From the IMG/VR virus record IMGVR_UViG_3300042549_007727: a stretch of DNA of 64,000 nt; one strand, written 5' to 3'. This DNA comes from a virus. Shown piece by piece: positions 400-16,988 of the stretch; positions within the stretch are counted from its first letter, which is position 1; the number at the start of each line of letters is the position of its first letter. The notes below the pieces were generated by a model. The model saw nothing but the letters and a program-made list of their open reading frames with translations. It searched no databases and was not told the DNA's origin. The position numbers and the translations under genes were made by a program.

Positions 400-441
400 C
401 CTAAAAATAGATACAGACACAACAAAGAAAGGGCGGAAGCC

Positions 442-1503: not shown

Positions 1504-1561
1504 TGAGTGGGTTGTGTCCTCACTAAAGGGTGGGGAAACGCAAGGTTTTTTCTTGTTTGAT

Positions 1562-1590
1562 TTGACTTGCGTTTCTCCCCCAACTACTAT
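1562..1590 (+). promoter_or_regulatory. sigma70/SigA-type promoter for vWA gene
   Basis: TTGACT-N17-TACTAT, overlapping the 3' arm of an inverted repeat (GGGGAAACGCAAG / CTTGCGTTTCTCCCC). Confidence 0.6.
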
Positions 1591-1634
1591 ACAATTTAGA
1601 CATAACAAAAAAACGCCAAATGAAAGGGAAGCAA

Positions 1635-3488
1635 ATGGCACACTACAAAGTAAAAGGTAAGTCAAGACTTACAACACGAACAACTACAACCAACCCAGAG
1701 TGGCTAAGAGTTTGTTCACAGATTGGTCGCTTGGTCAATGATTGGTCATGGCGTTCAGATTTAGTTGTCTATGGTGGAGAGGATTCTGCCGAGGGCAAAG
1801 CTATCGCTGCTTTTTATTCAGACATAGCAGAGATTGAAGTGAACTTGCCGAAAGCGTTTGGAGAACTTACGCCAGCAGATTTTGTCGGCGACTTGACTAA
1901 AAAAGAAACGCAGTATGAGTATCCAATGGTGACAGGCGTTCTGTATCACGAAGCACTACACGCACGCCACACGAATTGGGACACTTCAATTTTGTCAGAG
2001 GCACTAGACCCTAATGAGCAAAGAGCTTTTATGTTGCTAGAGGAATCACGAATTGAAGCAAAGGGAATCAAAGAGCGACCAGAGCTTAGAAACTTCTTGC
2101 GTGCTTCTGCTTTAGACATGGCACTAGACGAAGTGACTACAGACACACTCGCAGGTTTGGCTAGTGATGTTTGGAATACAGCACGCCTAGCAGGACTTTC
2201 AGTTTCAAGAGTGGATTCAGGAGTTCTTGAAGTTTCTGACATTACTGACATTTACAGAGAAGTAGTTTCAGTTCTTGGTCAGGACTTGTTTGACGAACTA
2301 AGAAAAGTTTGGATTGAGTTTCAGGCACTAGGCGTTCCACAGATTGAGCGAGCTATTGAACTTGCTAAGAAGTGGGTTGAACTATTGCGTGAATCAGACC
2401 CAGAGGGCGAGCCAGATTCAGGTTCGGCAGGTGACATTTTCGGCGAGCCAGATGAATCAGAGGGCGACAGCGAGGGTGGAAGCGGAAGTGAACTGTCTGA
2501 CACCATGAAAGACATGATTGAAAAACTTTCCGAATCTGCTAGTCACTCGGAGATAGAAGCGAGAGAGGCACTTGCCCAACAAGAGCAACAAGACAAGTGG
2601 GGCGAGGAATCAAAAGCAAGGCAAGAGCAAGCAAAGAATAACAACCAACGCAAAAACATAGCCAAGCAAATCTTTCACAAGCCACACTCCCAAGAGGGTT
2701 CGGGTTCTAACTCGTCTGTATCCTCTCGCAGACAGCCGACAGGGACAGAGCGAGCAAGTGCGGTAGAGATTGCTAAGTCATTAGACAAGGCAAAGTATCG
2801 TGAGCGTTCGGTTCATGTTCGCAAAAGTCAGACACCACAGGGCAAGCTGATTATGAGAAACGCCGTCCAGAATAGGGCAGTTGAATCTATTGGCAAGCGT
2901 GGAGAGTTGCCAGCGTGGAAGTCAAAGACACGCAAGCACACAGACGACCCAACGCTAAGGCTTGGAATCATGGTGGACATTTCAGGTTCTATGGGTTCTG
3001 CTATGGAAGCTATGGGACAGACAGCGTGGATTATGTCCGAGGCAGGTCGCAGGATTCAAGCTGAAACGGCTATGGTGTATTACGGCTCTGGCGTGTTCCC
3101 AACTCTAAAGCGTGGACAGCGTTTGAGCGAGGTGACGATTTACACAGCACCAGACGGAACTGAAAAGTTTACCGAAGCGTTTGAAGCGATTGACGGCGAG
3201 CTTGGACTAACTTTTGGGGACGGCGTGCGTATGTTAGTTGTTGTGTCGGACGGAAACTACACAGGCACAGAACTACAGAGAGCAACCGAACTACTAAGAG
3301 AGTGTAAACAAAACGGCGTGGCGGTTCTTTGGATTACACCGAGAGGTTGTAATGGCATGGGGGCGAGGTCAATAATTTCTGGTTCGGCGTGGGGAGTTCA
3401 CTTGGACGACCTAGACACAACGGAGATTGCGAGGCAAGTCGGCAAGTCGGCAAGCGAAGCATTGGGTCGGGTGGGTTCACTCACCTAG
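1635..3488 (+). CDS. vWA-domain protein with N-terminal HExxH metallopeptidase-like motif (CobT-like partner of the AAA ATPase)
   Basis: HEALH motif, acidic linker, MIDAS DISGS, VVVSDG; RBS AAAGGGAAG before ATG 1635. Confidence 0.85.
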   Translation: MAHYKVKGKSRLTTRTTTTNPEWLRVCSQIGRLVNDWSWRSDLVVYGGEDSAEGKAIAAFYSDIAEIEVNLPKAFGELTPADFVGDLTKKETQYEYPMVTGVLYHEALHARHTNWDTSILSEALDPNEQRAFMLLEESRIEAKGIKERPELRNFLRASALDMALDEVTTDTLAGLASDVWNTARLAGLSVSRVDSGVLEVSDITDIYREVVSVLGQDLFDELRKVWIEFQALGVPQIERAIELAKKWVELLRESDPEGEPDSGSAGDIFGEPDESEGDSEGGSGSELSDTMKDMIEKLSESASHSEIEAREALAQQEQQDKWGEESKARQEQAKNNNQRKNIAKQIFHKPHSQEGSGSNSSVSSRRQPTGTERASAVEIAKSLDKAKYRERSVHVRKSQTPQGKLIMRNAVQNRAVESIGKRGELPAWKSKTRKHTDDPTLRLGIMVDISGSMGSAMEAMGQTAWIMSEAGRRIQAETAMVYYGSGVFPTLKRGQRLSEVTIYTAPDGTEKFTEAFEAIDGELGLTFGDGVRMLVVVSDGNYTGTELQRATELLRECKQNGVAVLWITPRGCNGMGARSIISGSAWGVHLDDLDTTEIARQVGKSASEALGRVGSLT

Positions 3489-3519
3489 ACCTAAACGGAG
3501 TGCTTGCCCAGCGGTTGAG

Positions 3520-3700
3520 CGAAAGTCAGGACTTCCCCCCTTTGACCTGATAATAGTTCCCAACGGACAAGACACTAGAAACCCCTATCAAGTGCTTCCC
3601 CCAAGTCTTGGTAGGGGTTTCGCCTTTCTCGGTTTGACGGACGAGATTGGGTGGAATCTGAATCCCTGGCACAGACTTTTTACGAAAGATGAAAAGTCAC
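3520..3700 (+). ncRNA. candidate structured 3'UTR/small RNA with C-rich loops
   Basis: Hairpins 3525-3550 (loop ACTTCCCCCC), 3578-3621 (15-bp stem, loop with CTTCCCCC), 3674-3698. Confidence 0.35.
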
Positions 3701-3723
3701 CAGCAGAAAAAGCTGACGAAGGC

Positions 3724-3794
3724 GTATCCACTTTTTATCTGGCTAAAAACTTTTTTGACAAAACACTTGCTTTTTCTGTAAACCCTGTTAGGAT
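3724..3794 (+). promoter_or_regulatory. 13-mer motif + promoter, unit 1
   Basis: GTATCCACTTTTT 3724; TGnTAGGAT -10 at 3789. Confidence 0.7.
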
Positions 3795-3844
3795 TGGAAC
3801 TATCCAATCGGAACGAAACAGAAGTAGTTCCAGAGGGGGGATTT

Positions 3845-4195
3845 ATGGCTAAGGTCATTTCCCGAACAGCCCCAGAGGTTGCGAAAGCAACTCCAAAGGT
3901 TGTCAAAGTTTCACGAAAAGTCGTGGAACTAATCAGCGAACTTTCCGAAGTTCGTGCTACATACAACTCGGCGAAAGCCAGAGTTGAGGAACTTCGTGAC
4001 GAAGTTCTTTCCCAAGTTGGGCGTTCCAATTTGACCCTTGTCCACAACAGCATTGAGGTCGCTCGTATCGTTGAGAGTTCTCCTGTGCGTGTAGATGAGG
4101 AGTTCTTGAAAGAGAACTATCCAGAGGCTTACCAAGCTTCTCTAAGGGCAAAGCCCCAACACACGATTCGCTCTGTCACACGCAAAGCGAACTAA
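3845..4195 (+). CDS. small coiled-coil phage protein, paralog of 11591..11932
   Basis: G-rich RBS; shares LxHNxIExARI and D..L....PEA[YF] with 11591 ORF. Confidence 0.8.
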   Translation: MAKVISRTAPEVAKATPKVVKVSRKVVELISELSEVRATYNSAKARVEELRDEVLSQVGRSNLTLVHNSIEVARIVESSPVRVDEEFLKENYPEAYQASLRAKPQHTIRSVTRKAN

Positions 4196-4205
4196 AGAAC
4201 TGGGC

Positions 4206-4242
4206 GGGCAGGGCGAAAGCCCTGTCCCCCATTTCATTTTTT
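4206..4242 (+). terminator. intrinsic terminator
   Basis: GGGCAGGGC-GAAA-GCCCTGTCC + T-rich tail. Confidence 0.75.
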
Positions 4243-4257
4243 ATTTGACCTGACAAT

Positions 4258-4328
4258 GTATCCACTTTTTACCAAAGGAAATGGACACGGAAAAAAGATA
4301 CCGAAAATGTCAGGGACTATGCTAAGAT
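4258..4328 (+). promoter_or_regulatory. 13-mer motif + promoter, unit 2
   Basis: Motif 4258; TGCTAAGAT extended -10 (hexamer at 4323). Confidence 0.7.
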
Positions 4329-4357
4329 TGGAACTACCACAAAGAAAGGGGAACACC

Positions 4358-4708
4358 ATGAGAGGCGAGCCATTAGAGCTTGACGAAGTTGCTGGATTAT
4401 CTCTAACAGTATTGGGCGTGCTTGTTGAGGCATACATCAAAGAGGGATACAGCGACCCGACAATGTATAGAGCAATACGGGCTTCAACCGAACTGGCTAA
4501 AAACTTCAAGGCACGGCTAGAACTAGACGGACGGGACACGGACGGCGTGGACGACTTGATTACTAACCTAGAGCTAACGGCTATGGAATCTGGCGAGGTA
4601 GTAAACCGAATCATAGAGCAGAACGGCTGGCAAGAAACGGCTGGCGAGTGGAGTAGCCCTGCTAGTATGACTTGTGATAACGACTGCGAACATGACGGCA
4701 AGGAGTAG
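4358..4708 (+). CDS. hypothetical protein
   Basis: RBS AAAGGGGAA before ATG 4358. Confidence 0.7.
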   Translation: MRGEPLELDEVAGLSLTVLGVLVEAYIKEGYSDPTMYRAIRASTELAKNFKARLELDGRDTDGVDDLITNLELTAMESGEVVNRIIEQNGWQETAGEWSSPASMTCDNDCEHDGKE

Positions 4709-4715
4709 GGACGGC

Positions 4716-5015
4716 ATGGACTTTCAGACTGCGTTCGGCGAGGTTGTGCGTGAGCAACGGCGTGCTAATGAGATTACAATGCGAAGCGTGACGGATAGGG
4801 GACACCTAGCGTTGGGATACCTGTCCGAAGTGGAACGGGGACACAAAATGCCCTCTAGCCTAATAATTGCGTCCATAGCAGACGGACTGGGTATAGACGC
4901 AAGCGAGCTGATTATTCAGACGGGTATGCGTATGTCCAATGTTCCTGAAAGCCCTGAAAGCCTGTTCAAGCTAAGGGACAGAGATTGGGCTAATCAGTAT
5001 TCAGATTTGAGATAG
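4716..5015 (+). CDS. XRE-family HTH regulator, ClgR-like
   Basis: GEVVREQR...LALGYLSEVERGHKMPSS resembles the actinobacterial ClgR signature SLGYLSEVERGxKExSS. Confidence 0.8.
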   Translation: MDFQTAFGEVVREQRRANEITMRSVTDRGHLALGYLSEVERGHKMPSSLIIASIADGLGIDASELIIQTGMRMSNVPESPESLFKLRDRDWANQYSDLR

Positions 5016-5020
5016 AGAAA

Positions 5021-5052
5021 GCCCCCCTGACAAAAGTTAGGGGGATTTTTTC
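5021..5052 (+). terminator. intrinsic terminator
   Basis: CCCCCCTGAC-AAAA-GTTAGGGGGA + T tract. Confidence 0.75.
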
Positions 5053-5064
5053 TTGGCTGGTAGT

Positions 5065-5123
5065 GTATCCACTTTTTGCTGAACATTTTTTGTTTGGTTT
5101 TTGTCGGGGGTAGGGTATAGGAT
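5065..5123 (+). promoter_or_regulatory. 13-mer motif + promoter, unit 3
   Basis: Motif 5065; TTGTCGG element; TAGGAT at 5118. Confidence 0.65.
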
Positions 5124-5162
5124 TTGATTGTTATAAAAACTCCAACAGGAAAGTAGGGGAAA

Positions 5163-5399
5163 TTGAGTTATTATCCAGAGGGTTCTATGGCTGGTTCTGG
5201 CATAGATTCCGTAGAAGTTCCGTATGACGAGTTTGTCTGCGAAGCTGACGATTGTGGCAAGGTGAACGAAGCTAGTGAAGCTATGACAGACGACTATGGC
5301 AATTACGAAGTTGAGTGCCAGTTCTGCGGTAGCTTTTACTTTAGAAGTTCTATTGCCGAGGACAAGGCAGATTGGGCAGCGAATAATTATGATTACTAA
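5163..5399 (+). CDS. small acidic Zn-ribbon protein
   Basis: TTG start after AGGGGA; CEADDC and CQFC. Confidence 0.7.
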   Translation: MSYYPEGSMAGSGIDSVEVPYDEFVCEADDCGKVNEASEAMTDDYGNYEVECQFCGSFYFRSSIAEDKADWAANNYDY

Positions 5400-5556
5400 T
5401 CCAAAACAGGGGACACCAATAAAAAACAGCAAGGGCGAATTACGATACGAATACACTTGCCCGAAGTGTTTTGACGAATACAGGGTGGACGAAAAGACAC
5501 ACGCTTGGATTCAGACCTTAGACAGACTGCCTAAGTGTTCGCCTTGCTACTTGTAG
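5389..5556 (+). CDS. small Zn-finger protein
   Basis: CPKC...CSPC; ATG overlaps end of upstream gene. Confidence 0.6.
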   Translation: MITNPKQGTPIKNSKGELRYEYTCPKCFDEYRVDEKTHAWIQTLDRLPKCSPCYL

Positions 5557-5627
5557 CCTAAAAAGTTTCCCCCGAATAATCAGGAACAGCGATTCCGATT
5601 CGGGGGATTTTTTTATGCCGTCAATGT

Positions 5628-5697
5628 GTATCCACTTTTGCTGCGGCAGGGTAAAACTTTTTATGTGCGGTGAAAAGTCGTAGGTAGGTGATAGTAT
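5628..5697 (+). promoter_or_regulatory. motif variant + promoter, unit 4
   Basis: GTATCCACTTTTG 5628, after hairpin 5568-5613; TGATAGTAT -10 at 5692. Confidence 0.65.
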
Positions 5698-5739
5698 TCA
5701 AGTATCAAGCAACACTAACCACGAACAAAGGGGAACAAG

Positions 5740-6051
5740 TTGAAAAGATTGCCTAACTACAAGATTGGCGCGGAGATTAGTGCGCTAAACACTTTCACGA
5801 ACTACAATGGCACAATTAGCGCCGTTCGGGACGAGAATAATTACAGGATTACACACTGGAACACTGTAATTCTTGATTACAACACTGACACCAACGAGAT
5901 TATTTCGCTACAAGATAGCTACATTAGCCAGACAACCAGCGCGCTAGTTGGGCGAATCTTGAGGGCGTTGCCATACGCTTCGGTTGAAAGATACTTGGGC
6001 TACATGACGCCGTCAAAAGATAAGCGCCGTTTGGTCGGTATGCTTCGATAA
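5740..6051 (+). CDS. hypothetical protein
   Basis: TTG start after AAAGGGGAA; followed by terminator CCCCGC-TTCG-GCGGGG. Confidence 0.75.
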   Translation: MKRLPNYKIGAEISALNTFTNYNGTISAVRDENNYRITHWNTVILDYNTDTNEIISLQDSYISQTTSALVGRILRALPYASVERYLGYMTPSKDKRRLVGMLR

Positions 6052-6121
6052 AAAGCCAAAAAGTTAGCCCCGCTTCGGCGGGGTTTTCTTTTTCCGTGAA
6101 AAGTTGCGCCGGTCGCGGCGT

Positions 6122-6170
6122 GTATCCACTTTTTGATGAAAGCTTTTTGCGGATCCTTGATCTGTATAAT
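6122..6170 (+). promoter_or_regulatory. 13-mer motif + promoter, unit 5
   Basis: Motif 6122; TATAAT at 6165. Confidence 0.7.
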
Positions 6171-6192
6171 TGTTGATGAAGGGGGAACACCA

Positions 6193-6507
6193 TTGAATAA
6201 TTTCTCAGAGCGAATCATTGCCAATACCGAAGATGGACGCCGTGAAGTGCGCGTCCTGCGTCTTGCGGTAAGTCTTGGCGACGACTTGGCATACATTGAT
6301 TGGGAGCCAAGCGGGGAGCTTTACTTTATCAAAGTCCCCGTCGAGTATCGCCGTCAAGGAATCGCTACAAAGCTATGGCAGGACGCTCAGGAACACGCGA
6401 GAAGCTTGAACTTGCCCGCGCTAACCCATAGCGAATACAGAACTGACGCGGGCGATTCTTGGGCTAAGTCCCTAGGCGAAAAACTTCCACCAAGAATCCG
6501 CGCTTAG
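6193..6507 (+). CDS. GNAT-family acetyltransferase-like protein
   Basis: Acetyl-CoA-binding motif A: VPVEYRRQGIATKL; TTG start after GGGGGAA. Confidence 0.7.
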   Translation: MNNFSERIIANTEDGRREVRVLRLAVSLGDDLAYIDWEPSGELYFIKVPVEYRRQGIATKLWQDAQEHARSLNLPALTHSEYRTDAGDSWAKSLGEKLPPRIRA

Positions 6508-6523
6508 TTTTTTGTAGCCAGGT

Positions 6524-6594
6524 GTATCCACTTTTTGACGAGGCGACACGCTTGCTTGCGGGTTCTTGCTTTTGTCGGTGGGTTGGGGTAAAGT
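6524..6594 (+). promoter_or_regulatory. 13-mer motif + promoter, unit 6
   Basis: Motif 6524; TTTGTCGG; TAAAGT at 6589. Confidence 0.65.
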
Positions 6595-6626
6595 CAAACT
6601 AACCAAGCAAGAGGGAAGGAAACAAA

Positions 6627-6842
6627 ATGATTGGTAGAAACAAAGATGCGGAAACAGCTTTTGATATGGCAATGAAGTTGCTGAACAACCCAAGTGAGGA
6701 AGTTCAACAGCAAGTCTGGGACAAGTGCCACGCTGACGAAGTAATCCAAAGGTCGGTAAGGCTTTACCTTTACAGCGAGCCAAGCTACACACCAAAGGCT
6801 CTATACAACCTTCACCAAAAACTCGCCGAGTTGGTGTCCTAA
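6627..6842 (+). CDS. hypothetical protein
   Basis: RBS GAGGGAAGGA, ATG. Confidence 0.7.
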   Translation: MIGRNKDAETAFDMAMKLLNNPSEEVQQQVWDKCHADEVIQRSVRLYLYSEPSYTPKALYNLHQKLAELVS

Positions 6843-6991
6843 TGGTTGTTCGCCCGCTGGAGAATACAGTTTGCTATCAATGCCCTAAGAAGATTATGGC
6901 AATGGTTGGTGCGGTTCACCCGCTATGCGTTGAGTGTCAAGAAAGTTTTGACGATTGGTTTGAACACGAGCTAGGAGTTTTCAATGGCTAA
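6842..6991 (+). CDS. 49-aa Zn-finger protein (below ORF-track cutoff)
   Basis: MVVRPLENTVCYQC...LCVECQ; TAATG coupling with upstream gene. Confidence 0.6.
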   Translation: MVVRPLENTVCYQCPKKIMAMVGAVHPLCVECQESFDDWFEHELGVFNG

Positions 6992-7187
6992 GCAAGTTTA
7001 TTTTGTTGTTGCGGTGGACTTAGATGAGTGCGTGCCGTTTATAGATGATGACACCTTTACAGCAAGGTTCAGTTCGGCAGAGCAAGTTTGGGACACCGAA
7101 CTACAAGAGTGGCAAGAAGACCCTGACCAAGAGTTTTACGATAAAGCGTTGAAGATTTTGAACACCATACCTTTAGCGAAAGACTAG
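6984..7187 (+). CDS. hypothetical acidic protein
   Basis: RBS AGGAG, overlaps upstream gene. Confidence 0.7.
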   Translation: MAKQVYFVVAVDLDECVPFIDDDTFTARFSSAEQVWDTELQEWQEDPDQEFYDKALKILNTIPLAKD

Positions 7188-7190
7188 TCA

Positions 7191-7502
7191 ATGAAACACA
7201 AAAAGAGTAAAGTTCAAGGCAAGTCTAGGCACGCCGAGTATCTTCGCCGAGTAGATAACGCCGATAGAGTTGCGGTAATGCTAAGGGGCATAACTTTATT
7301 TTGCGCTTTTATTTTTGTAATGAGGATAGTCGCTGGCGTTGATTCAGTTTCAGAATACCTAATCCTTTATGCGGTTGTGTTTGTGGGCGGGGTTAGTGCT
7401 TCGCTTGCCGAATACTTTTTGTTTAGGGCTTACCAAAGTCGCTACTCAAAAAGTCGCCGACAAAGTTTTTGGGATTTGTTCAACACCGAACTTTCCAAAT
7501 AA
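7191..7502 (+). CDS. membrane protein (2 TM)
   Basis: Two hydrophobic segments, basic termini. Confidence 0.7.
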   Translation: MKHKKSKVQGKSRHAEYLRRVDNADRVAVMLRGITLFCAFIFVMRIVAGVDSVSEYLILYAVVFVGGVSASLAEYFLFRAYQSRYSKSRRQSFWDLFNTELSK

Positions 7503-7506
7503 AACT

Positions 7507-7544
7507 TCCCGCTAGGACTTCCCCCCTAGCGGGATTTTCTCTTT
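7507..7544 (+). terminator. intrinsic terminator with ACTTCCCC loop
   Basis: TCCCGCTAGG-ACTTCCCC-CCTAGCGGGA + T tract. Confidence 0.8.
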
Positions 7545-7552
7545 CCAGCTGC

Positions 7553-7612
7553 GTATCCACTTTTTGATAGAGATTTTTTTGTGTGCGTTTTGTCGGTGGA
7601 CTATGCTATGGT
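7553..7612 (+). promoter_or_regulatory. 13-mer motif + promoter, unit 7
   Basis: Motif 7553; TTTTGTCGG; TGCTATGGT -10 at 7607. Confidence 0.7.
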
Positions 7613-7640
7613 TGAAGTATCCAAACAAAGGGGAAGTAAA

Positions 7641-7832
7641 TTGAAGACAGATTCAAGAATAGCAATAGTTTCAGAGCTACCAAACTGCGACTTCTGCGGT
7701 GAACACGCTCGCTATGACGGAGCAACCAAACTTGGACCTTGGGCTTTTATGTGCCAGAAGGACTGGGTATCTCACGGAGTAGGGCTTGGGCTTGGCAAAG
7801 GTCAAGTTCTAATGAAGGAAGGAACTAAGTAA
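7641..7832 (+). CDS. small Cys-containing phage protein
   Basis: TTG start after AAAGGGGAAG; CDFC...YDG.T..GPWAFMC...GLGLGKGQ. Confidence 0.7.
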   Translation: MKTDSRIAIVSELPNCDFCGEHARYDGATKLGPWAFMCQKDWVSHGVGLGLGKGQVLMKEGTK

Positions 7833-8033
7833 ATGGCGACAACAGTTGGAGAGCTGATTGAACAGCTAAAGACGCTGGACCCCGACACAACAGTTGTGTT
7901 TCAGTATTTGACACACGAACACACCGACTTTTCAATTGACGATTTTGAGTCAAAAGCCGAGGCACTTGACTACACCAACTTCGCTGATGAAATGTCTATC
8001 ACGATGAACGAGTGGCTCGCCGAAATGGAGTAG
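7833..8033 (+). CDS. hypothetical protein
   Basis: TVGELIEQLKTLDPD N-terminus common in small phage proteins. Confidence 0.7.
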   Translation: MATTVGELIEQLKTLDPDTTVVFQYLTHEHTDFSIDDFESKAEALDYTNFADEMSITMNEWLAEME

Positions 8034-8102
8034 CCACGCGACACCAAAGATTCCCCCGCGACCCCCGCGGGGGTTTTCTTTTTTGCCGGAAGGTAGCCAG
8101 GT

Positions 8103-8176
8103 GTATCCACTTTTTGATTCGGCTGCCGAAAGGGTTTTGTAAAAGTATTTGCTTTTTTCTTTTTGTGTAGTAAGAT
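8103..8176 (+). promoter_or_regulatory. 13-mer motif + promoter, unit 8
   Basis: Hairpin 8053-8073 upstream; motif 8103; TTGCTT 8149 and TAAGAT 8171. Confidence 0.65.
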
Positions 8177-8204
8177 GAAACTCTAACGAAAGGGAGGTTC
8201 CTAA

Positions 8205-8597
8205 ATGGGAGCAAGAACAACTTGGAAAATAAAGACTAATGATTCGGGAGCTATTACTTGGCTTTACAGTCATTGGGGAGGCGACAGTAAGTTTGACACC
8301 ACTAAAGAGGCGTTGGACTTGGCTATGCCTCGCTGGGAGGATAGGACTTATGGAGCTAGGATTTTTATCAGTAGCGTAATTGGTAATTCTTGGAGTTCAC
8401 AGACAGGGTTTGGAATTACTTCAACCCTTGACACAGATTCCAACCCGTTTGAGGAAAGCTACACGCCTTACACAATTGACTTTGTGCGGAAAGTAGTGAT
8501 TCTTGAAGGTGTTCTCGGAGAGGACTGGGAGTTAGGCTTTGACGAGTTCACTAGACTAAACAGCGAAGCCGACTTGCTACTTCAAGGGACAAGGTAA
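8205..8597 (+). CDS. hypothetical protein
   Basis: RBS GGGAGG; LYSHWGG motif. Confidence 0.75.
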   Translation: MGARTTWKIKTNDSGAITWLYSHWGGDSKFDTTKEALDLAMPRWEDRTYGARIFISSVIGNSWSSQTGFGITSTLDTDSNPFEESYTPYTIDFVRKVVILEGVLGEDWELGFDEFTRLNSEADLLLQGTR

Positions 8598-8879
8598 ATG
8601 GGAAACTTACAAGCTCAAGAAATTGCGAGCAACACCGAAATTACACTTGAACAGCAACTAACTTGGCACTTACAAGGTAATCACTATCCACCGATTCCAG
8701 TTAGTATGGTTCAGCCTTGTGTTGAAGCAATTCAGGCTTATTGGGAAGATGAGCTAGACACGGAGATTCAGTTGCCCGAAGGTGTTTTGTATCGGGGGAA
8801 GGAAACAGCCCCCGCTAGAGAAATAATCATCAATCATCACTTAGACGCTTGGTGTCAAGATGACGAAGATGAGTTTTAG
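8598..8879 (+). CDS. hypothetical protein
   Basis: Abuts upstream gene; WHLQGNHYPP...HHLDAW. Confidence 0.75.
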   Translation: MGNLQAQEIASNTEITLEQQLTWHLQGNHYPPIPVSMVQPCVEAIQAYWEDELDTEIQLPEGVLYRGKETAPAREIIINHHLDAWCQDDEDEF

Positions 8880-8905
8880 GATTAGCCCCAACTAACCCCC
8901 CAAAT

Positions 8906-8949
8906 GCGGGCAATAGAGAGATTCCCCCTTTCTATTGCCCGTTTTCTTT
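8906..8949 (+). terminator. intrinsic terminator with ATTCCCC loop
   Basis: 15-bp stem GCGGGCAATAGAGAG / CTTTCTATTGCCCGT + T tract. Confidence 0.8.
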
Positions 8950-8962
8950 GCGTGCCGGTAAG

Positions 8963-9033
8963 GTATCCACTTTTTACTGGGCTTGATTTTCTTTTTATGA
9001 AATACTTGTTTTTCTTTGTTAGTGTGTTATTGT
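8963..9033 (+). promoter_or_regulatory. 13-mer motif + promoter, unit 9
   Basis: Motif 8963; TGTTATTGT -10 at 9028. Confidence 0.65.
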
Positions 9034-9082
9034 TTATCTGTTGGGAAGTTCCCGACAAGAAACAAGAAAGTTGGGCAGAGAA

Positions 9083-9310
9083 GTGAAGTTTGTAATTAGG
9101 AGAGCAGTCTTAGGGTTGGTGGCTTTGCCAGTAATCGCTGGGACTTATGTTTTTATGTTTGTATTGCTAGGTTCGCTAAACAATACTTTATGGGGACTAA
9201 CCCTAGATGAAGTTTGGAATAACGGACTTTTGATTGGTTCGGTTAGTGCGGTTGCTTTCGCTTTCGCAACTCAGATTGACAAGCTAATTGCTAGATTGGT
9301 TGGTGAATAA
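9083..9310 (+). CDS. membrane protein (2 TM)
   Basis: GTG start; two hydrophobic segments. Confidence 0.65.
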   Translation: MKFVIRRAVLGLVALPVIAGTYVFMFVLLGSLNNTLWGLTLDEVWNNGLLIGSVSAVAFAFATQIDKLIARLVGE

Positions 9311-9444
9311 TGACTATCATTGTAATCAACCTAGACGGCTCAAGAACGCCTTACGGCTATTCGGCTCACTCATCAGACATCACCGATTACTATGACCGCC
9401 TAGTTGCGGAAAATAGAATCACCGCCTATGAGGTGATTTCCTAA
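9310..9444 (+). CDS. 44-aa hypothetical protein
   Basis: TAATG coupling at both ends. Confidence 0.55.
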   Translation: MTIIVINLDGSRTPYGYSAHSSDITDYYDRLVAENRITAYEVIS

Positions 9445-9590
9445 TGGGAGATTTTATTCTATTAGCGTTTGCTATCGGACTTATCTTTGGTGGCTTTACT
9501 CTTATGTTTTACAGTTTACTAACTGTAAAAAGAGATAACTACCGACCGAAGCATACACGCTCAACATACCTGCCCAACAGGAAAAGATAG
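9444..9590 (+). CDS. 48-aa single-TM protein
   Basis: MGDFILLAFAIGLIFGGFTLMFYSLL + basic tail; RBS GAGG. Confidence 0.55.
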   Translation: MGDFILLAFAIGLIFGGFTLMFYSLLTVKRDNYRPKHTRSTYLPNRKR

Positions 9591-9667
9591 TTCCCCCAAC
9601 TATCGGAAAGCCCTCGCCTTTGTGCGGGGGTTTTCTTTTTTCTGTTTTTTTTTTCTGACGAGAGCTG

Positions 9668-9728
9668 GTATCCACTTTTTGATGGAAGTTTTTTCGGCTT
9701 CCGTTTTGTCGGGCATTTATGCTAGTGT
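9668..9728 (+). promoter_or_regulatory. 13-mer motif + promoter, unit 10
   Basis: Motif 9668; TTTTGTCGG; TGCTAGTGT -10 at 9723. Confidence 0.7.
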
Positions 9729-9756
9729 TAGAGCTACCAATTAGAAAGGTTATCAA

Positions 9757-9924
9757 ATGGGAAAGTTAGTTGCAGAGCTAGGAACAAAAAAAGTCTTATC
9801 TCTAGTTGAAGGCGAAACAACAGTTTCGGCTTACTTACTCACGGAGAGTGAAGAGTTTCTTGCTGTCCTAAAGAGTGCCGACAGTCTAGAGCAGGTTCTA
9901 GATTGGGTAGAAGAAAACTACTAG
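9757..9924 (+). CDS. 55-aa hypothetical protein
   Basis: RBS GAAAGG; MGKLVAELGTKKVLSLVEGE... Confidence 0.6.
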   Translation: MGKLVAELGTKKVLSLVEGETTVSAYLLTESEEFLAVLKSADSLEQVLDWVEENY

Positions 9925-9935
9925 GAAGGTAGAAA

Positions 9936-10286
9936 ATGAAATTAGCTCTAAAGATAACGCCAGATGGCGTAGCAACTGAAATTGACATAGCCACGGACGA
10001 ATTGAAGAAACTACAAGACGCGGTTGATGGTCTAATTCAACCCGTTGATTTTGAGTTCGGCTCTAGGTATTTGACAATGTGGGTGAATGAAGAAGGACTA
10101 CTTAGAAACGATTTGGAAATGAATCCTGTCGCCTTTCTGTTTTACTCTTCACCGATAATGGGAAACATTATCATAACTGGCGCGCCAGATGAAGATGGCG
10201 AAACAACAAGCCTAGACAGCGCGACAGAGTTAGATGTTCTAAAAAGGATTTGTGAAAAGTTCCTAAGTTCTGTTGAACAAGTCTAA
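9936..10286 (+). CDS. DUF3846-like protein
   Basis: LQDAVDGLIQPV...MWVNEEGL...N..A...GNIIITG pattern. Confidence 0.65.
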   Translation: MKLALKITPDGVATEIDIATDELKKLQDAVDGLIQPVDFEFGSRYLTMWVNEEGLLRNDLEMNPVAFLFYSSPIMGNIIITGAPDEDGETTSLDSATELDVLKRICEKFLSSVEQV

Positions 10287-10359
10287 ATAAAAAACTAAAG
10301 CAACCCCGCCTTTGCGCGGGGTTTCTTTTTATCTTCCGTAAAAAGTCTGCCGTCAACTG

Positions 10360-10421
10360 GTATCCACTTTTTGATGCCTCTCTTAGTTGCGGTTGCTTTT
10401 TTCTTGCGTTTGTGTTATCTT
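10360..10421 (+). promoter_or_regulatory. 13-mer motif + promoter, unit 11
   Basis: Hairpin ~10303-10330; motif 10360; TGTTATCTT -10 at 10416. Confidence 0.65.
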
Positions 10422-10458
10422 GATTTGGCTTATAGCAACACTTAGTAGAAAGAGAAAA

Positions 10459-11397
10459 ATGAAAAGACAAATTAGTATCGCGCTCGCGGTGGCATTGCTT
10501 GCCGTTGGGACTACCCCCGCTAGCGCTGGAGTTCAAGGTGAAGTTAGTTCTTGGGGTCTAGATAGAGTAGACCAAACAGCGGGAACAGCAACACTAGATA
10601 GAAGCTACAAATACCCCGACAGCGCTGGCGCTGGAGTTCGCGTGTATGTTTTAGACACGGGAGTTCTTGGAACGCTACCTGGTTTCGGCGGGAGAGTTCT
10701 TACAGGGTTTGACACTCTCGCGGGACTTAGAACGCCACATCAGGCTAATCTTGACTGTAATGGTCATGGAACAGCCGTAGCTGGAATCATTGCTAGCGCG
10801 ACTTATGGAGTAGCTAAGAGCGCAACCATTGTGCCAGTTCGCGTTGCGGACTGTAAAGGTGGAATAGTTCCTGCCAACATTGTCAAGGGAATTGACTGGA
10901 TAATCAAGAATCACCCGCGCGGTACCCCTGCCGTTGTGAATCTAAGTATCGCGGTTGGTAAGACTAAGTTGGTTGATGACGCGATTACAAAACTCTACGG
11001 GATTGGTATAGTTTCAGTAGTTTCCGCTGGTAATCAAAACATAGACGCTTGTCGTCTAAGCCCCGCGGGAGCAACATACGCCCTTACCGTTGGGTCTATA
11101 AACATGAACGACCAAAGAACAAATACTTCTAACTTTGGCGAGTGTGTTTCTATGTACGCCCCTGGTGGTTTGATTACTACCGAGGGAACAAATGGTTTGC
11201 CCTCAACAAGAAGCGGAACATCTTTTTCCGCGCCTCATGTTGCTGGAGCAATAGCCTTGTATCTTTCAAGCAACCCTAAGGCAGACGCCCCCGCGACTGT
11301 TTGGGAGATTACAAGAAATGGTTTGAGTGGAGCTGTTGCTGACGCTAAGAGCGTTAGAGGCAATGTTCTACTCAACACCGCCTTTCTAAACAAGTAA
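10459..11397 (+). CDS. secreted subtilisin-like S8 serine protease (proteinase K/aqualysin-like)
   Basis: Signal peptide ending ASA; WGLDRVDQ; catalytic D (YVLDTG), H (GHGT), S (SGTSFSAPHVAG). Confidence 0.92.
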   Translation: MKRQISIALAVALLAVGTTPASAGVQGEVSSWGLDRVDQTAGTATLDRSYKYPDSAGAGVRVYVLDTGVLGTLPGFGGRVLTGFDTLAGLRTPHQANLDCNGHGTAVAGIIASATYGVAKSATIVPVRVADCKGGIVPANIVKGIDWIIKNHPRGTPAVVNLSIAVGKTKLVDDAITKLYGIGIVSVVSAGNQNIDACRLSPAGATYALTVGSINMNDQRTNTSNFGECVSMYAPGGLITTEGTNGLPSTRSGTSFSAPHVAGAIALYLSSNPKADAPATVWEITRNGLSGAVADAKSVRGNVLLNTAFLNK

Positions 11398-11456
11398 GCA
11401 ATAAGCAAAGACCCCCTGCCGTAATTGGCGGGGGGTTTTTTGCTAGCTGAAGGCGT

Positions 11457-11527
11457 GTATCCACTTTTTGACCTGTTGAAAAAACTTTTGCGGAATTGCT
11501 TGTTTTATCGGATTAGTATGCTATGAT
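11457..11527 (+). promoter_or_regulatory. 13-mer motif + promoter, unit 12
   Basis: Terminator ~11411-11441; motif 11457; TGCTATGAT -10 at 11522. Confidence 0.7.
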
Positions 11528-11590
11528 GATTACATCATCAAAAGATGATAATCCAAGCAACAAAAGCAACACCTAACAAAGGGGAATAAG

Positions 11591-11932
11591 TTGACAACAT
11601 CAACAACAACCGCAACAACAACCGCAACCAAGGCAACAAAAGTTGTTCTAGGACAAGTTCGGGAATTGACTGAGGTTAGGGCAGAAATTGCCAGACTGGA
11701 AAAACTAAAGTTGGCTCTCACCGCTGAAATTGAAAAGGCTTTTGAGGTTGACAAAGAAGCAAAGACCTCACGCTTTTCAACCCTTACTCACAATGCCATA
11801 GAGTTCGCAAGAATTGACTGGAGAAGCCGTAAGGGTATTGACTCAGAGAAGTTAGCCCTAGAGTTTCCTGAAGCGTTTGAGGCTTGCCAGAAGCCAACTG
11901 TTTACTCAGTAATAGTTTCCTTGTTCAAGTAA
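11591..11932 (+). CDS. small coiled-coil phage protein, paralog of 3845..4195
   Basis: TTG start after AAAGGGGAA; LTHNAIEFARI...IDSEKLALEFPEAF. Confidence 0.8.
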   Translation: MTTSTTTATTTATKATKVVLGQVRELTEVRAEIARLEKLKLALTAEIEKAFEVDKEAKTSRFSTLTHNAIEFARIDWRSRKGIDSEKLALEFPEAFEACQKPTVYSVIVSLFK

Positions 11933-12007
11933 AAGGGAGAGAGAAGCCCCCGCCGAAAGGTTGGGGGCTTTTCTTTTGCCAAAAAGTTTTACGGCGACTC
12001 GCGGGCT

Positions 12008-12079
12008 GTATCCACTTTTTGATTAGTCTTCCAGGTGTATCACGGGCTTAGGCTTTTTGTCTGTGGCAAATAGTATGCT
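12008..12079 (+). promoter_or_regulatory. 13-mer motif + promoter, unit 13
   Basis: Terminator ~11945-11977; motif 12008; TAGTAT/TATGCT at 12071/12074. Confidence 0.6.
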
Positions 12080-12135
12080 AATGATTACTAGCCAATTGGT
12101 TAGTAGTTGGGCAACAATTATTAGTTTGGAGAATC

Positions 12136-12339
12136 ATGAACATTAGTTCAGATACAAGGTCAACGCAAGAGTTGACTGTTGCGCTTATGGCACTAAACAC
12201 TACAACCCTTATTCCAACTGGATACGGGGTATCTCAGGACTGTGCAACAGCTATTGAGTTCTTGAAGCAACGCTCAGAACAGATGGCTAATGTTGCTAAG
12301 GAAATTGAGAAGCTACTAGGGGGAGTTCACCGTGGCTAA
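12136..12339 (+). CDS. hypothetical protein
   Basis: RBS GGAG. Confidence 0.65.
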   Translation: MNISSDTRSTQELTVALMALNTTTLIPTGYGVSQDCATAIEFLKQRSEQMANVAKEIEKLLGGVHRG

Positions 12340-12571
12340 GTTTGTAATCACTAATGGCAGAGTTGGTAATGACAACGGTAATCAGCAATTTGTAGAACAC
12401 GCCTATTATCACCCTATGGGCAGGAAAGCCCTATTGAACAAGATTCAAGACCTAGCTAATAGAAGCGGATTAGAGTCTTGGGCAGAGCTATACACGGAAT
12501 GGAAAGATGAGAATAGGACTGGCAAAACACCGAATCGAATCTTCCCTAGAAAGCCGTATTCAACTTACTAA
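12332..12571 (+). CDS. hypothetical protein
   Basis: GTG start, RBS GGGGAG. Confidence 0.65.
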   Translation: MAKFVITNGRVGNDNGNQQFVEHAYYHPMGRKALLNKIQDLANRSGLESWAELYTEWKDENRTGKTPNRIFPRKPYSTY

Positions 12572-12592
12572 CTAGATACCTCAGTAAGTAAT

Positions 12593-12623
12593 GACCCCCT
12601 AGCTATACGGTTGGGGGGTCTTT
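12593..12623 (+). terminator. intrinsic terminator closing the early array
   Basis: GACCCCCTAGC-...-GTTGGGGGTC-TTT. Confidence 0.75.
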
Positions 12624-12719
12624 GCTATGCGGTATGCGGTTGAATAGTTTGGATTCATGAATGCTTGATCATGCGGATAGCAAAAACAATTATTGAATTA
12701 GTTTTTTGATAGATCAGGT

Positions 12720-13240
12720 TGACCCCCCCATGAAATAAGCCAAAAATAATTAGCGGGCGGGCGGGCATACCCCCCTCAGAAACTTATAGTTAGTAATAAA
12801 CTTACTTAGGTCTTTTCTAGTTCTTTCAGCTAGCCCTCATAGACGCCCCCCTGTAAGCCTCACTAGAAAGACACCCAACTTGGACAGCTAATGCTAGACG
12901 CCCCCTCAGAGTAGTAGTCATAGATTCTAAAGTCATGACCCCCTAAGAAAGACAACCTTGTCTTGTAAAGTTCTTAGTAATCTAGTATCCTTGACAATAG
13001 ATAGTAATTTTTATTTTTCTAGCTTGAAGCAAGGACTAATTTTTATAAAGAACAATTTTGTATGGCGTATTCAACAAGAATTGTTTTTGGAAGACCCCTT
13101 CACTTTTAGGAAACAATTTTGAAGTCCTTCAATTTCATACGGCTACCCTCTCACCCGTCAAAAGCAGTAGACGCTAAGGTACTAATTCTTCCGTTACGGA
13201 CACCCCCCTCTTTTTAAAAAACGCAATTACCCCCTGCCCC
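12720..13240 (+). repeat. non-coding region with repeated GAC(G)CCCCC / C-tract motifs
   Basis: C-tract motifs near 12721, 12769, 12842, 12897, 12937, 13093, 13199, 13229; no ORF. Confidence 0.6.
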
Positions 13241-13322
13241 AAAACGACAAAAAATCCGGAAAAAATTTTTCAAAAAAATTCGTCCAATAGCCCGATATCT
13301 ACATAGTGCTAAAATGTACCTT

Positions 13323-13832
13323 ATGCCCCGTAGAACAGCGCGAAGTCAGCCGCTACCCCCAGCCGAAGTTGAGTACCTAAACTCGCTTACAATAAACGCC
13401 CTTATCCCGAGAGTCAACGCACTGTATAACGCAGGGTGGGCGCTTCAAGCCATCGGGGAATGCCTATCCCCTAGACGCCCTAGATCCACGGTTCGCAGCT
13501 GGGTAGTTAAGTCTGCTGAGCTTGGGGCCCAAGAAGCAGTAGACGCCCCTACCCTCCCATCTCCTGTACATAAAACAGCAGCCGATGGGTATCAGAAACG
13601 CCGCCCTACATCTCCAGGTATCCCTGAGGACACTTTTGACGAGATTAGGTCCTTAGCGCCCCTAGCACGCTCCTACAGGGCCAAAATGGCCCAAACTAGC
13701 TCTGCGGCCGTAGCAAACCGCAGATTGACTGATATTTGCGCCAAATTGCACGAAAATGGCGTAGGAATAAGGGAATTAGCCGAGGCAGCAGGAGTAACAT
13801 ACCGCGCTATGTACAAGAGAATTAAGCTTTAA
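13323..13832 (+). CDS. double-HTH DNA-binding protein
   Basis: GWALQAIG and GVGIRELAEAAGVTYRAMYKRI; probable leaderless start 7 nt after TAAAAT. Confidence 0.7.
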   Translation: MPRRTARSQPLPPAEVEYLNSLTINALIPRVNALYNAGWALQAIGECLSPRRPRSTVRSWVVKSAELGAQEAVDAPTLPSPVHKTAADGYQKRRPTSPGIPEDTFDEIRSLAPLARSYRAKMAQTSSAAVANRRLTDICAKLHENGVGIRELAEAAGVTYRAMYKRIKL

Positions 13833-14051
13833 TCTCGATTTGACATCCTAAATCCGACACAATAGGGTTTTTGACGTGGTAAAATATTAACCGGAGAGCA
13901 CGTTCTTTCAATAAAAGGAAGGATGTGCTTTTTGGCATCTCTGGACATTTTGTGTTAGAGTGCAACCCACAACTGAATATGGAAAGAAAACCAAATAGAA
14001 CACTAAACGACCGAGTACTAAAGTATTCACTTCTGAAAGGTAGGTCGCTAA

Positions 14052-14804
14052 ATGCATAAGAGGTTCATTTCAATAAGTGCGATAGCACTAGTAATGACTG
14101 GCTCCACCGCAGCGTTCGGACAGATGTTAGAGTCCACCACCGCTGCGTCAGAACAAACATTAGTAACACAAGTAACAAAACCGGCTGAAATAATTGATTC
14201 TCCTGTACAAAAGGTAGAAATTGTTTCCGGCCCTGCTGTATCACCCGAGATTGCTGCGGGCCCTGTCCTAAAGTCAAGCGCACCGATCATTGGGTCGTAC
14301 GACTGGATGGCCCAGGAAAAAGCTGCAAAAGAAGCTCTCATGTCTGATGCTGAAAAAGTGCAAGCAGAACTAGAGGCAGAAATTGCTCGGCTAGAAAAAA
14401 TCGCCTCTGACACCAAAGCCCTAAACGAGGCTCTTGTCTTGGTTAAAAAACAAATTGGCATCACCCCTTGGGTTTTTCAGGGGTCAAGCCCCCGCGCCTG
14501 GGACTGCTCGGGTCTTGTAAAATGGACCTACGCCCAGCTTGGGATAGACCTGTATCACAGTGCCACATGGCAAAGATACTGGGGCGAGATTGTAGCCGAA
14601 CCTAAAATTGGAGACCTAGTGTCTTTCAATTACAAAAACTACTCAAGCGCCTACCATATTGGGATCTACGTTGGTCCTGATGAGATGATCCACGCTGGCG
14701 GTAAGCCAGGAGATAGGGCCGAAATAATCTCTATCAGCGAATGGGCAAAAGACAATTCGAATAGTGAAGTCATCTACACCCGACTAATTGAAACTAACAA
14801 CTAG
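14052..14804 (+). CDS. NlpC/P60 (C40) peptidoglycan endopeptidase with signal peptide
   Basis: WDCSGLV catalytic Cys, YHIGIY His, MIHA; N-terminal signal and coiled coil. Confidence 0.9.
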   Translation: MHKRFISISAIALVMTGSTAAFGQMLESTTAASEQTLVTQVTKPAEIIDSPVQKVEIVSGPAVSPEIAAGPVLKSSAPIIGSYDWMAQEKAAKEALMSDAEKVQAELEAEIARLEKIASDTKALNEALVLVKKQIGITPWVFQGSSPRAWDCSGLVKWTYAQLGIDLYHSATWQRYWGEIVAEPKIGDLVSFNYKNYSSAYHIGIYVGPDEMIHAGGKPGDRAEIISISEWAKDNSNSEVIYTRLIETNN

Positions 14805-14815
14805 TTAGGACGAGA

Positions 14816-14846
14816 GGCCCCTCCTTCGGGAGGGGTTTTTCTCTTT
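14816..14846 (+). terminator. intrinsic terminator
   Basis: CCCCTCC-TTCG-GGAGGGG-TTTT. Confidence 0.85.
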
Positions 14847-14921
14847 AAATTTGACTTGACAAACAAAATCATATACATTAGTGTTTAGTCAAGCATCACC
14901 CAAATAGAGAAAAGAGACAAA

Positions 14922-15179: not shown

Positions 15180-15221
15180 TCCTGCCTTGCGCATACGACT
15201 AGATTGTGATAGTATAAAGCC

Positions 15222-15563: not shown

Positions 15564-15567
15564 AATA

Positions 15568-16022: not shown

Positions 16023-16035
16023 GGTATTGACCACA

Positions 16036-16590: not shown

Positions 16591-16600
16591 GGAGCAACAA

Positions 16601-16969: not shown

Positions 16970-16988
16970 AGTAGGGTAAACTACCTAC

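Follow-up and report, generated by a model that had tools for sequence, protein, structure and literature searches.

A repeated 13-mer as a putative upstream promoter element of early gene cassettes in an actinophage genome

The sequence analyzed here is a 64-kb window of the IMG/VR record IMGVR_UViG_3300042549_007727, which derives from an uncultured siphovirus-type actinophage of a lake, with nearly all genes on the plus strand. Besides a terminase (16989-18398), a tape measure, tail proteins, a DNA polymerase A and a helicase, it encodes an array of small gene cassettes, each opened by the same 13-mer, GTATCCACTTTTT, for which we propose a probable role as a binding site linked to early promoters. 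All features are given in window coordinates and lie on the plus strand unless stated otherwise. The window is contained in a 117.7-kb JGI contig (L101; window position x corresponds to L101 position x+9559), of which 73.5 kb were covered by the gene and motif searches. The nearest GenBank relative is Actinomycetia phage DSL-LC01, an assembly from a lake metagenome with about 73% amino acid identity in terminase and polymerase; Microbacterium and Arthrobacter siphophages of about 190 kb are more distantly related. The array starts directly after the lysis module (endolysin at L101 3928-4797) and ends at a non-coding stretch of about 700 bp, approximately 4 kb before the terminase.

Twelve exact copies and one copy with a single mismatch are present between 3724 and 12020, all on the plus strand. 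They are located at 3724-3736, 4258-4270, 5065-5077, 5628-5640 (the mismatch copy, ending in TTTG with the last T changed to G), 6122-6134, 6524-6536, 7553-7565, 8103-8115, 8963-8975, 9668-9680, 10360-10372, 11457-11469 and, as the array's final copy, 12008-12020, with 402-1097 bp between neighbors. When up to two mismatches are allowed, the window contains 14 matches against a mean of 2.2 after shuffling, and none of 100 shuffles reached 14. The 13-mer is asymmetric and not palindromic. An earlier sequence-only reading of the window had described these thirteen co-oriented copies, and the motif scan and the shuffles confirm its observation with small corrections. Its statement that all copies are intergenic holds once gene starts are set by ribosome-binding site and conservation (ATG at 3845 for gene A, ATG at 4358 for gene B1), the copies at 3724 and 4258 being overlapped by gene calls based on the longest open reading frame (ORF). 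It had further noticed no full copy outside this zone. This is correct for the window, with zero copies between 12.1 and 64 kb, and for the complete 154-kb genome behind the relative L098, where 16 of 16 exact copies of its own motif version fall inside 13.3 kb, less than 9% of the genome. The array itself is longer than was described: two extra copies lie 334 and 1265 bp upstream of the window start, of which the one at L101 9225 is followed by a promoter. The source genome thus contains 15 copies in total, all co-oriented, and 14 of these match the 12-base core.

A MAFFT alignment of the 13 copies with their flanks reveals a common order for each unit: a GC-rich hairpin with U-run, 8-31 unconserved bases, the 13-mer, 30-58 bases, a -10 element, a G-rich ribosome-binding site and one to four small genes. 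Apart from the 13-mer with its weak gt.. and ..gat flanks (extended consensus gtGTATCCACTTTTTgat), the first T of the -10 element is the sole invariant column, and hairpins and -35/-10 sequences vary between copies. A GC-rich hairpin with U-run precedes 11 of the 13 copies (fold z -2.1 to -5.7). These predicted terminators are found at 4197-4235 (before copy 2; -29.3 kcal/mol, z -4.8), 5014-5053 (copy 3; z -3.7), 5559-5615 (copy 4; z -2.9), 6058-6093 (copy 5; z -3.1), 7507-7534 (copy 7; z -3.8), 8906-8942 (copy 9; z -5.7), 11404-11444 (copy 12; z -4.3) and 11939-11975 (copy 13; z -3.2), as well as at 8053-8073, 9605-9636 and 10302-10323 (copies 8, 10 and 11). The sequence-only reading had allowed a single exception, the copy at 6524, which indeed has no stable hairpin upstream (z -0.3) and no convincing terminator; copy 1 at 3724 is a second one, being preceded by a weak A/U hairpin in which the U-run is absent. 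Conversely, the terminator that closes the last cassette (12593-12620) and another at 14812-14841 have no motif after them.

Downstream, a promoter is predicted for all 13 copies. The -10 elements are mostly of the extended TGnTAnnnT, sigmaA type that is usual in Actinobacteria. In array order, and with the distance from the motif end to the -10 start, they are TAGGAT (3789-3794, 52 nucleotides (nt), carrying the invariant T of the alignment), TAAGAT with TGc (4323-4328, 52 nt), TAGGAT (5118-5123, 40 nt, the caller's alternative being at 54), TAGTAT with TGa (5692-5697, 51 nt), TATAAT (6165-6170, 30 nt, the shortest spacing class), TAAAGT (6589-6594, 52 nt), TATGGT with TGc (7607-7612, 41 nt), TAAGAT (8171-8176, 55 nt), TATTGT with TGt (9028-9033, 52 nt), TAGTGT with TGc (9723-9728, 42 nt), TATCTT with TGt (10416-10421, 43 nt), TATGAT with TGc (11522-11527, 52 nt) and, for cassette 13, either TATGCT at 53 nt or TAATGA at 58 nt (12074-12084). 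Since every motif has a promoter while not every motif has a terminator, the motif belongs to the promoter and not to the terminator. The presence of terminator, promoter, ribosome-binding site and genes in the units supports the earlier proposal that they are autonomous transcription cassettes.

Relatives were fetched by means of the VWA/CobT-like protein encoded at 1620-3488, a conserved anchor with a weak PF05762 match that is 58-83% identical in 39 relatives (three from IMG/VR and 36 metagenomic) and whose counterpart in DSL-LC01 is annotated as 'cobalamin biosynthesis protein'. A motif scan of these phages shows a punctuating motif in the same slot in about 30 of them, each array carrying its own version out of a few discrete ones: GTATCCAC, GTATTTAT/GTGTTTAT, (A)TAGTTAT, GTTCCGAC, GTTTTCAC and GGTATTTAG. 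Each version is essentially invariant inside its genome and is always followed by T5-6. Allele A (GTATCCAC) occurs in the window, L105, L110/111, L118/119 and L124/126, TGTATTTAT or TGTGTTTAT in L098, L116, L117 and L122, allele C (TAGTTAT...CTG) in L099, L100, L107, L108, L114 and L129-132, GTTCCGAC in L120, GTTTTCAC in L121 and L138, and GGTATTTAG in L134. An exact 15-mer scan of IMG/VR yielded single chance matches only, a nucleotide search against GenBank phages gave no match, and in the literature we found no paper on the 13-mer motif or on the promoters of DSL-LC01 or Zooman-type phages.

The alleles do not track the backbone phylogeny. L098 and L100, the closest pair by AAA and VWA proteins (87-88%), carry different alleles, and the VWA proteins of L110 (allele A) and L107/L099 (allele C) are 89-91% identical. 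The most instructive pair is L110 (GTATCCAC) and L107 (TAGTTAT), with about 85% nucleotide identity overall and 87.5% in the lysis region. In six orthologous intergenic regions their alignment runs across the motif, and one allele stands in the place of the other, e.g., TGTATCCACTTTTT versus TGTAGTTATTTTTT. All sites of one genome have thus switched allele together, and such a concerted switch in place is expected of sites that co-evolve with one trans-acting factor. Because both phages also share the lysis region at this level of identity, the protein that would read the motif is more likely phage- than host-encoded.

More distant phages show variations on the same design. The motif is absent from DSL-LC01. 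In the syntenic region of this phage, an extended -10 promoter close to the consensus is repeated about 25 times (gATTCTAAAGaTGTTATAATaGAATCA, between 22588 and 43330), each copy being followed by a conserved leader and ribosome-binding site (ACGACGAAAGGACAA); the cassette layout is the same, with the promoter itself as the repeat and the upstream tag absent. In Microbacterium phage Zooman (L104), a genome-specific repeat, TTTAGTGcc-N-ACTCTTGCGT, is distributed over 2942-15770, located after terminator T-runs and upstream of TTGACA-N17-TAAGCT promoters, with about 10 forward and 3 reverse copies according to a repeat survey and 9 forward and 1 reverse copies by regular expression.

The distance between motif and promoter is helically phased. 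For the window spacings listed above, taking 58 nt for the last cassette, a scan from 5 to 20 bp gives a best period of 11.1 bp (Rayleigh p about 0.001; equaled by 0.4% of uniform nulls), and an objective -10 scorer agrees with the assignments at 11 of the 13 sites. We extended the test to 172 sites in 14 de-duplicated related genomes, using an objective -35/-10 scorer and measuring from the end of the octamer to the -10 element. The mode for allele A is 57 nt (satellites: 45-49, 36 and 66-67 nt), that for allele B 59-60 nt (satellites: 49-51 and 69-70 nt) and that for allele C 58 nt (satellites: 48-50, 66-67, 77-78 and 87-90 nt); pooled, the modes lie at 57-60 nt and the satellites at about 37, 48, 67, 78 and 88 nt. 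Each of the three alleles gives a best period of 10.2-10.3 bp, and none of 3000 uniform nulls reached the observed concentration. The motif of Zooman is located either 22-23 or 44-45 nt from the -35 element. A site that can be shifted only by whole helical turns is classical for a protein facing RNA polymerase, as for class I activators and displaced UP elements. Recombination sites, accessory elements of terminators and RNA signals are not expected to show such phasing. Orientation offers an additional clue. L098 has 14 forward and two reverse exact copies, and the latter keep the slot, after a plus-strand terminator and about 60 nt before the next plus-strand promoter, which fits a DNA-bound protein rather than an RNA signal or a core promoter element. 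The reverse copies lie at 15174-15186 and 20159-20171 of L098, the second being followed by about 680 nt without a clear gene.

The cassettes themselves encode a heterogeneous set of proteins. Within the array but ahead of the first motif in the window, a MoxR-like AAA+ ATPase is encoded at 442-1503 (PF07728 AAA_5, E 1.3e-20), with its motif-bearing promoter upstream of the window, followed by the VWA/CobT-like gene. Gene A (3845-4195) is the first cassette gene after VWA in all relatives and has a paralogue at 11591-11932. The two paralogues occupy the first and twelfth window cassettes, and relatives carry both at different array ranks. A small inverted repeat, TTGGAnnATCCAA, is found in the 5' leader of gene A right after the -10 element (3795-3808) and is kept at the nucleotide level in L098 (about 12105-12125) and in L110/L107, the leaders being otherwise diverged. 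Family matches agree with the labels previously assigned from sequence to an Xre/ClgR-like helix-turn-helix (HTH) protein (4674-5015; HTH_3, PF01381, E 1.6e-5), a GNAT acetyltransferase (6133-6507; PF00583), a DUF3846 protein (9936-10286; PF12957, E 3e-17) and a subtilase of family S8 (10387-11397; PF00082, E 2.6e-33). Profile searches returned no family match for most other cassette genes. For the two most conserved early proteins a protein atlas gave unnamed viral clusters only, and PHROGs gave no function.

The block comprising the AAA and VWA genes and the cassette array (1-12650; its start, at the first motif, lies about 1.3 kb before the window) is poor in palindromes. It contains 266 4-bp palindromes versus 654 expected (ratio 0.41), compared to a ratio of 0.99 in the rest of the window. 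ACGT, GGCC and TTAA do not occur in the block, and ATAT, GATC, GTAC, TGCA, TCGA and CCGG occur at most three times. The depleted block runs from about L101 8000 and the palindrome level returns sharply to expectation after about 12.6 kb; its onset coincides with the first motif in L101, L098, L099 and L100, and the drop is not seen in Zooman or DSL-LC01. DNA that meets host restriction before any phage protection is in place usually shows such a depletion, which suggests an early, possibly first-entering region. In the linear record of Zooman, the equivalent array is found at the left genome end, right after the endolysin. Small ORFan genes, together with a marked scarcity of restriction-type palindromes, give the region the appearance of an early zone for host takeover or anti-defence, in support of what the sequence-only reading had suggested.

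Array and palindrome-poor block end together at a non-coding boundary (12621-13313, no strand assigned) with C-rich repeats (TAGACGCCCC twice and several GACCCCC), in which 13109-13279 is 76% identical to L098 at the nucleotide level. This boundary may represent a genome terminus, the site of packaging or promoters of another class. The equivalent stretch of L098 contains TAGACGCCCCTATT three times (20814, 21058 and 21371). An Rfam search of 1-17000 gave no match. Between array and terminase, an NlpC/P60 peptidase gene is located at 14052-14804. A 197-amino-acid protein with a sigma-70 region 4-like HTH (15997-16590; PF04545, E 5e-7) is encoded directly upstream of the large terminase gene and is probably the small terminase subunit. 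A ferritin-like gene (20840-21295) is found inside the head module.

Based on these features, we consider it probable, at roughly 0.6, that GTATCCACTTTTT is a promoter-linked binding site of one sequence-specific factor, combined with an adjacent T-tract for polymerase contact or bending. The 13-mer would be a cis-regulatory upstream promoter element that presents a protein on a fixed face of the helix, centered about 70-75 nt upstream of the predicted transcription start, or nearer to it by one to two helical turns. The element would serve at least 15 host-type promoters (sigmaA, mostly with extended -10), each driving a small, self-terminated early cassette. The 5' octamer (GTATCCAC here), which exists in few discrete versions among related phages, would be read by the factor, and the 3' T5-6 tract, which does not differ between relatives and lies on the promoter side, probably docks the C-terminal domain of the RNA polymerase alpha subunit or bends the DNA. 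Binding of a single factor would then switch the whole early cassette set on or off together. Both activation at the start of infection and later shut-off are possible, with a slight lean to activation in view of the class I activator geometry. The suggestion from the sequence-only reading that the cassettes are co-regulated by one factor reading an asymmetric 13-mer is thus probably right. Its interpretation as a whole is partly supported: the autonomous, co-regulated cassettes are retained, and shuffling driven by the motif and a stoperator-like action are not.

Several points weigh against this proposal. Covariation tests found no binding protein for the 13-mer. We compared column patterns (four phages), within- versus between-allele identity (25 loci), allele-private families and nearest-neighbor concordance (de-duplicated genomes), and in these four tests on up to 25 loci no protein family within ±10 kb tracked the allele and no gene was private to one. 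The ClgR-like HTH protein (4674-5015), the array's only HTH protein, was rejected as the motif reader: sorting the phages by its recognition helix puts the window with L099 and L098 with L100, but sorting them by motif puts L099 with L100. The -10 assignment is ambiguous at two of the 13 window sites, transcription starts are predictions whose absolute positions may be off by 1-2 nt or more, and part of the spacing pattern could stem from duplicated promoter modules with a shared ancestor. The distal UP subsite has the consensus AWWWWWTTTTT, which the T-tract half resembles, and part of the effect may need no dedicated factor. Finally, the searches for genes and motif copies extend to the 73.5 kb of the source genome mentioned above.

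Further candidates from the covariation tests were discarded. The signal of the cassette gene at 5740-6051 was inflated by near-identical genome pairs, and ORFs overlapping VWA, which were among the top matches of the 25-locus identity test, did not yield a candidate. The endolysin shows weak covariation only (22 columns versus at most 14). A host-encoded reader is therefore possible, if less likely than a phage-encoded one.

A bolder version of the proposal, which we regard as tentative, assumes a novel regulator with switchable specificity, phage-encoded or delivered with the virion, that reads an 8-bp 'identity code' beside the T-tract, located one or more helical turns upstream of every early promoter. 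If so, any gene placed behind a tagged promoter would join the early program, and the code, of which at least six versions exist, would act like specificity or incompatibility groups between co-infecting relatives. This would be comparable to T7/T3 specificity or to repressor/stoperator immunity groups, but exerted on host RNA polymerase from an upstream position.

Among the alternatives, the one that survives best, albeit as an unlikely explanation, dispenses with a dedicated regulator. The 13-mer and T-tract would form a displaced UP-like or bent-DNA element contacted by the alpha C-terminal domain of host RNA polymerase, and the uniformity of the copies would result from concerted evolution or copying of promoter modules. 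The T5-6 tract is indeed constant in all alleles, the B allele ATTTATTTTTT fits the distal UP consensus, the phasing is as alpha contacts would give, and the search for a trans-acting factor found none; moreover, DSL-LC01 combines the absence of the upstream motif with near-consensus TGTTATAAT promoters, as if one design substitutes for the other. Yet 12 of the 13 copies in the window match exactly, down to the octamer GTATCCAC with its G/C bases, a strictness far beyond what UP elements need, and the alleles are discrete instead of forming a degenerate A/T continuum. The sequence adjacent to the motif is unconserved, and gene conversion is therefore not homogenizing the region. In addition, canonical UP sites lie one to two turns downstream of the modal position found here (-65 to -78).

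Slightly less probable, and likewise doubtful, is a role of the 13-mer mainly as a recombination site, either as a short homology patch, as in the promoter-early stem-loop (PeSL) cassettes of T4-type phages, or as the target of a site-specific recombinase for cassette exchange. The cassettes have clearly been reshuffled. In the four best-sampled phages, cassette genes are patchily shared (35-70% amino acid identity) in permuted order while the flanking AAA and VWA genes are collinear, a paralogue of gene A resides in another cassette, and whole motif-to-motif units have moved (e.g., 20678-21223 of L099 equals 13594-14136 of L100). The architecture also resembles that of PeSLs, which do recombine (PMC2839356, PMC4122927). 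At the nucleotide level, homologous stretches tend to start 60-90 nt downstream of one motif and to stop 20-130 nt short of the following one. The cassette is thus what rearranges as a unit, as in the PeSL regions of T4-type phages. The sequence-only reading had gone further by suggesting that shuffling possibly occurs at the repeats, to be checked in an alignment of relatives. Such an alignment reproduces the permuted gene order and content, but with relatives of 67-80% identity the breakpoints resolve only to 'intergenic' and crossovers are not placeable on the 13-mer. Other features speak against a recombination site. Thirteen base pairs are very short for homologous exchange, and no integrase or recombinase was found in the covered part of the source genome, which extends to that part the earlier remark that no integrase is visible in the window. 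Helical phasing to the -10 element is not predicted, orthologous sites have changed allele without rearrangement, and the two inverted copies of L098 are not tied to an inverted gene block. Three sampled strains, L102 and L103 among them, are 99.98-100% identical and without cassette indels, and being so alike they are uninformative. The phasing and the allele switching in place indicate that the 13-mer is kept for sequence-specific promoter recognition. We read cassette shuffling as a consequence of the modular layout and not as the function of the 13-mer, for which a role as recombination patch is at most secondary.

It is very unlikely that the copies are stoperators, at which an immunity-type repressor would block elongating RNA polymerase and silence the region in a lysogen. 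They share with stoperators the asymmetry, the length of 13 bp, the high copy number and the co-orientation with transcription; the consensus of stoperators also varies between phage groups (PMC13313380), and DSL-LC01 has been called possibly lysogenic (PMC10611076). This phage is itself without the motif, however, and the sites are confined to less than 9% of a complete genome. They are located after terminators and about 58 nt upstream of phased promoters, thus outside the transcribed units, and none overlaps a promoter core. Neither an integrase nor an immunity repressor was found in the covered 73.5 kb.

Least probable of all is an action through host DNA or RNA machinery (DnaA boxes with core TATCCAC that titrate or recruit DnaA, Chi-like sites that attenuate exonucleases, nick sites or an RNA signal carried by read-through transcripts), for although the copies are strictly co-oriented, seven of nine positions match the DnaA box TTATCCACA and true box pairs occur in early intergenic regions of L100 and Zooman, the TATCCAC core is found only in allele A and is absent from B to F (GTATTTAT, TAGTTAT and GTTCCGAC not being DnaA boxes), the window is without a full box, Chi-like, nick or RNA sites would be expected neither to be phased to the -10 element nor to keep their slot when inverted, and an RNA signal is not indicated by Rfam. 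The perfect inverted DnaA-box pairs (TTATCCACA...TGTGGATAA) are located at 17096-17136 and 18032-18072 in L100 and at about 15345-15375 in L104.

The lineage is abundant in lakes and estuaries, as indicated by the 39 relatives and by the presence of the same protein in 46 sample blocks, and its culturable cousins (Microbacterium phage Zooman and relatives) share the design with a motif of their own, which makes it accessible to bench tests. In each phage the tagged cassettes mark about 30 small uncharacterized genes, whose location in a region poor in restriction sites makes them good candidates for host-takeover and anti-defence functions. The motif also provides a simple sequence rule for locating the early regions of such phages in metagenomes.

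Compared to known systems, the array is architecturally closest to the PeSL cassettes of T4-type phages (Arbiol 2010, PMC2839356; Comeau 2014, PMC4122927). Both combine a stem-loop terminator with G/C runs, an A/T-rich tract, a host-type early promoter and flanking small ORFans in a plastic early region, and in both the cassettes are reshuffled between relatives. In PeSLs, however, promoter and stem are conserved, whereas here both are degenerate and only a separate 13-mer, located upstream of the -35 element, is invariant; the phasing and the discrete alleles belong to this 13-mer. Recombination at the repeats, yielding mini-circles, is known for PeSLs, while only a permuted cassette order is seen here, and the lineages (an actinobacterial siphovirus versus T4-like myoviruses) are unrelated. 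The analogy drawn by the sequence-only reading is thus a fair architectural match and does not amount to family membership. Its second analogy, to the stoperators of the Cluster A/CA actinophages L5, Bxb1 and Rasputin, fails on distribution and position. Those sites are likewise asymmetric, 13-14 bp long, numerous and oriented with transcription, with a consensus that varies between phage groups together with the cognate protein. They are, however, distributed genome-wide (PMC13313380), occur within transcription units or at the ends of genes and block elongation in lysogens, whereas the sites described here occupy one early zone upstream of promoters at phased distances. An integron-like array was rejected as well: there is no integrase or recombinase in the covered sequence, each cassette has its own promoter, and the 13-mer is not a palindrome, unlike the imperfectly palindromic attC sites.

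With regard to the presumed mode of action, parallels are class I activator sites and displaced UP elements, such as CRP at -61.5/-72.5/-82.5, the MarA/SoxS marboxes and phi29 p4 at -82. Their features, a position upstream of -35 on one helical face with classes separated by 10-11 bp, recur here, and an adjacent A/T tract is available to the alpha C-terminal domain; the asymmetry of the site would imply a monomeric binder, as for MarA and SoxS. The site is nevertheless far more uniform than any set of regulon operators, its design recurs with switched specificity across a phage lineage, and no activator was found. Promoter sets of the T7/T3/SP6 type, which co-evolve with their phage RNA polymerase, offer the best-known parallel for the near-identical copies per genome, the discrete versions between close relatives and the switching of all sites in concert. 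In those sets the conserved block is the core promoter itself, contains the start site and is read by a single-subunit phage polymerase, whereas here a host-type -10 element lies about 58 nt downstream, followed by a ribosome-binding site, and no RNA polymerase family was found among the large ORFs of the window. For the region as a whole, the host-takeover module of SPO1 (PMC6873191) is a functional parallel. It comprises some two dozen small early genes that are clustered at the terminus and organized into many short operons, with strong host-type promoters and ribosome-binding sites and with products aimed at host processes; the genes are unrelated. We know of no invariant, allele-switching upstream tag in that module.

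In summary, we file the 13-mer among the regulatory repeats of phage early promoters, as a tag that lies upstream, is helically phased and switches alleles. A few model phages are already known to place many early genes under one switch by means of regulatory repeats. New here is a tag that is separate from the core promoter, locked to one helical face and changed in specificity at all sites between phages that are about 85% identical, a pattern that points to a compact, quickly evolving system of factor-site recognition.

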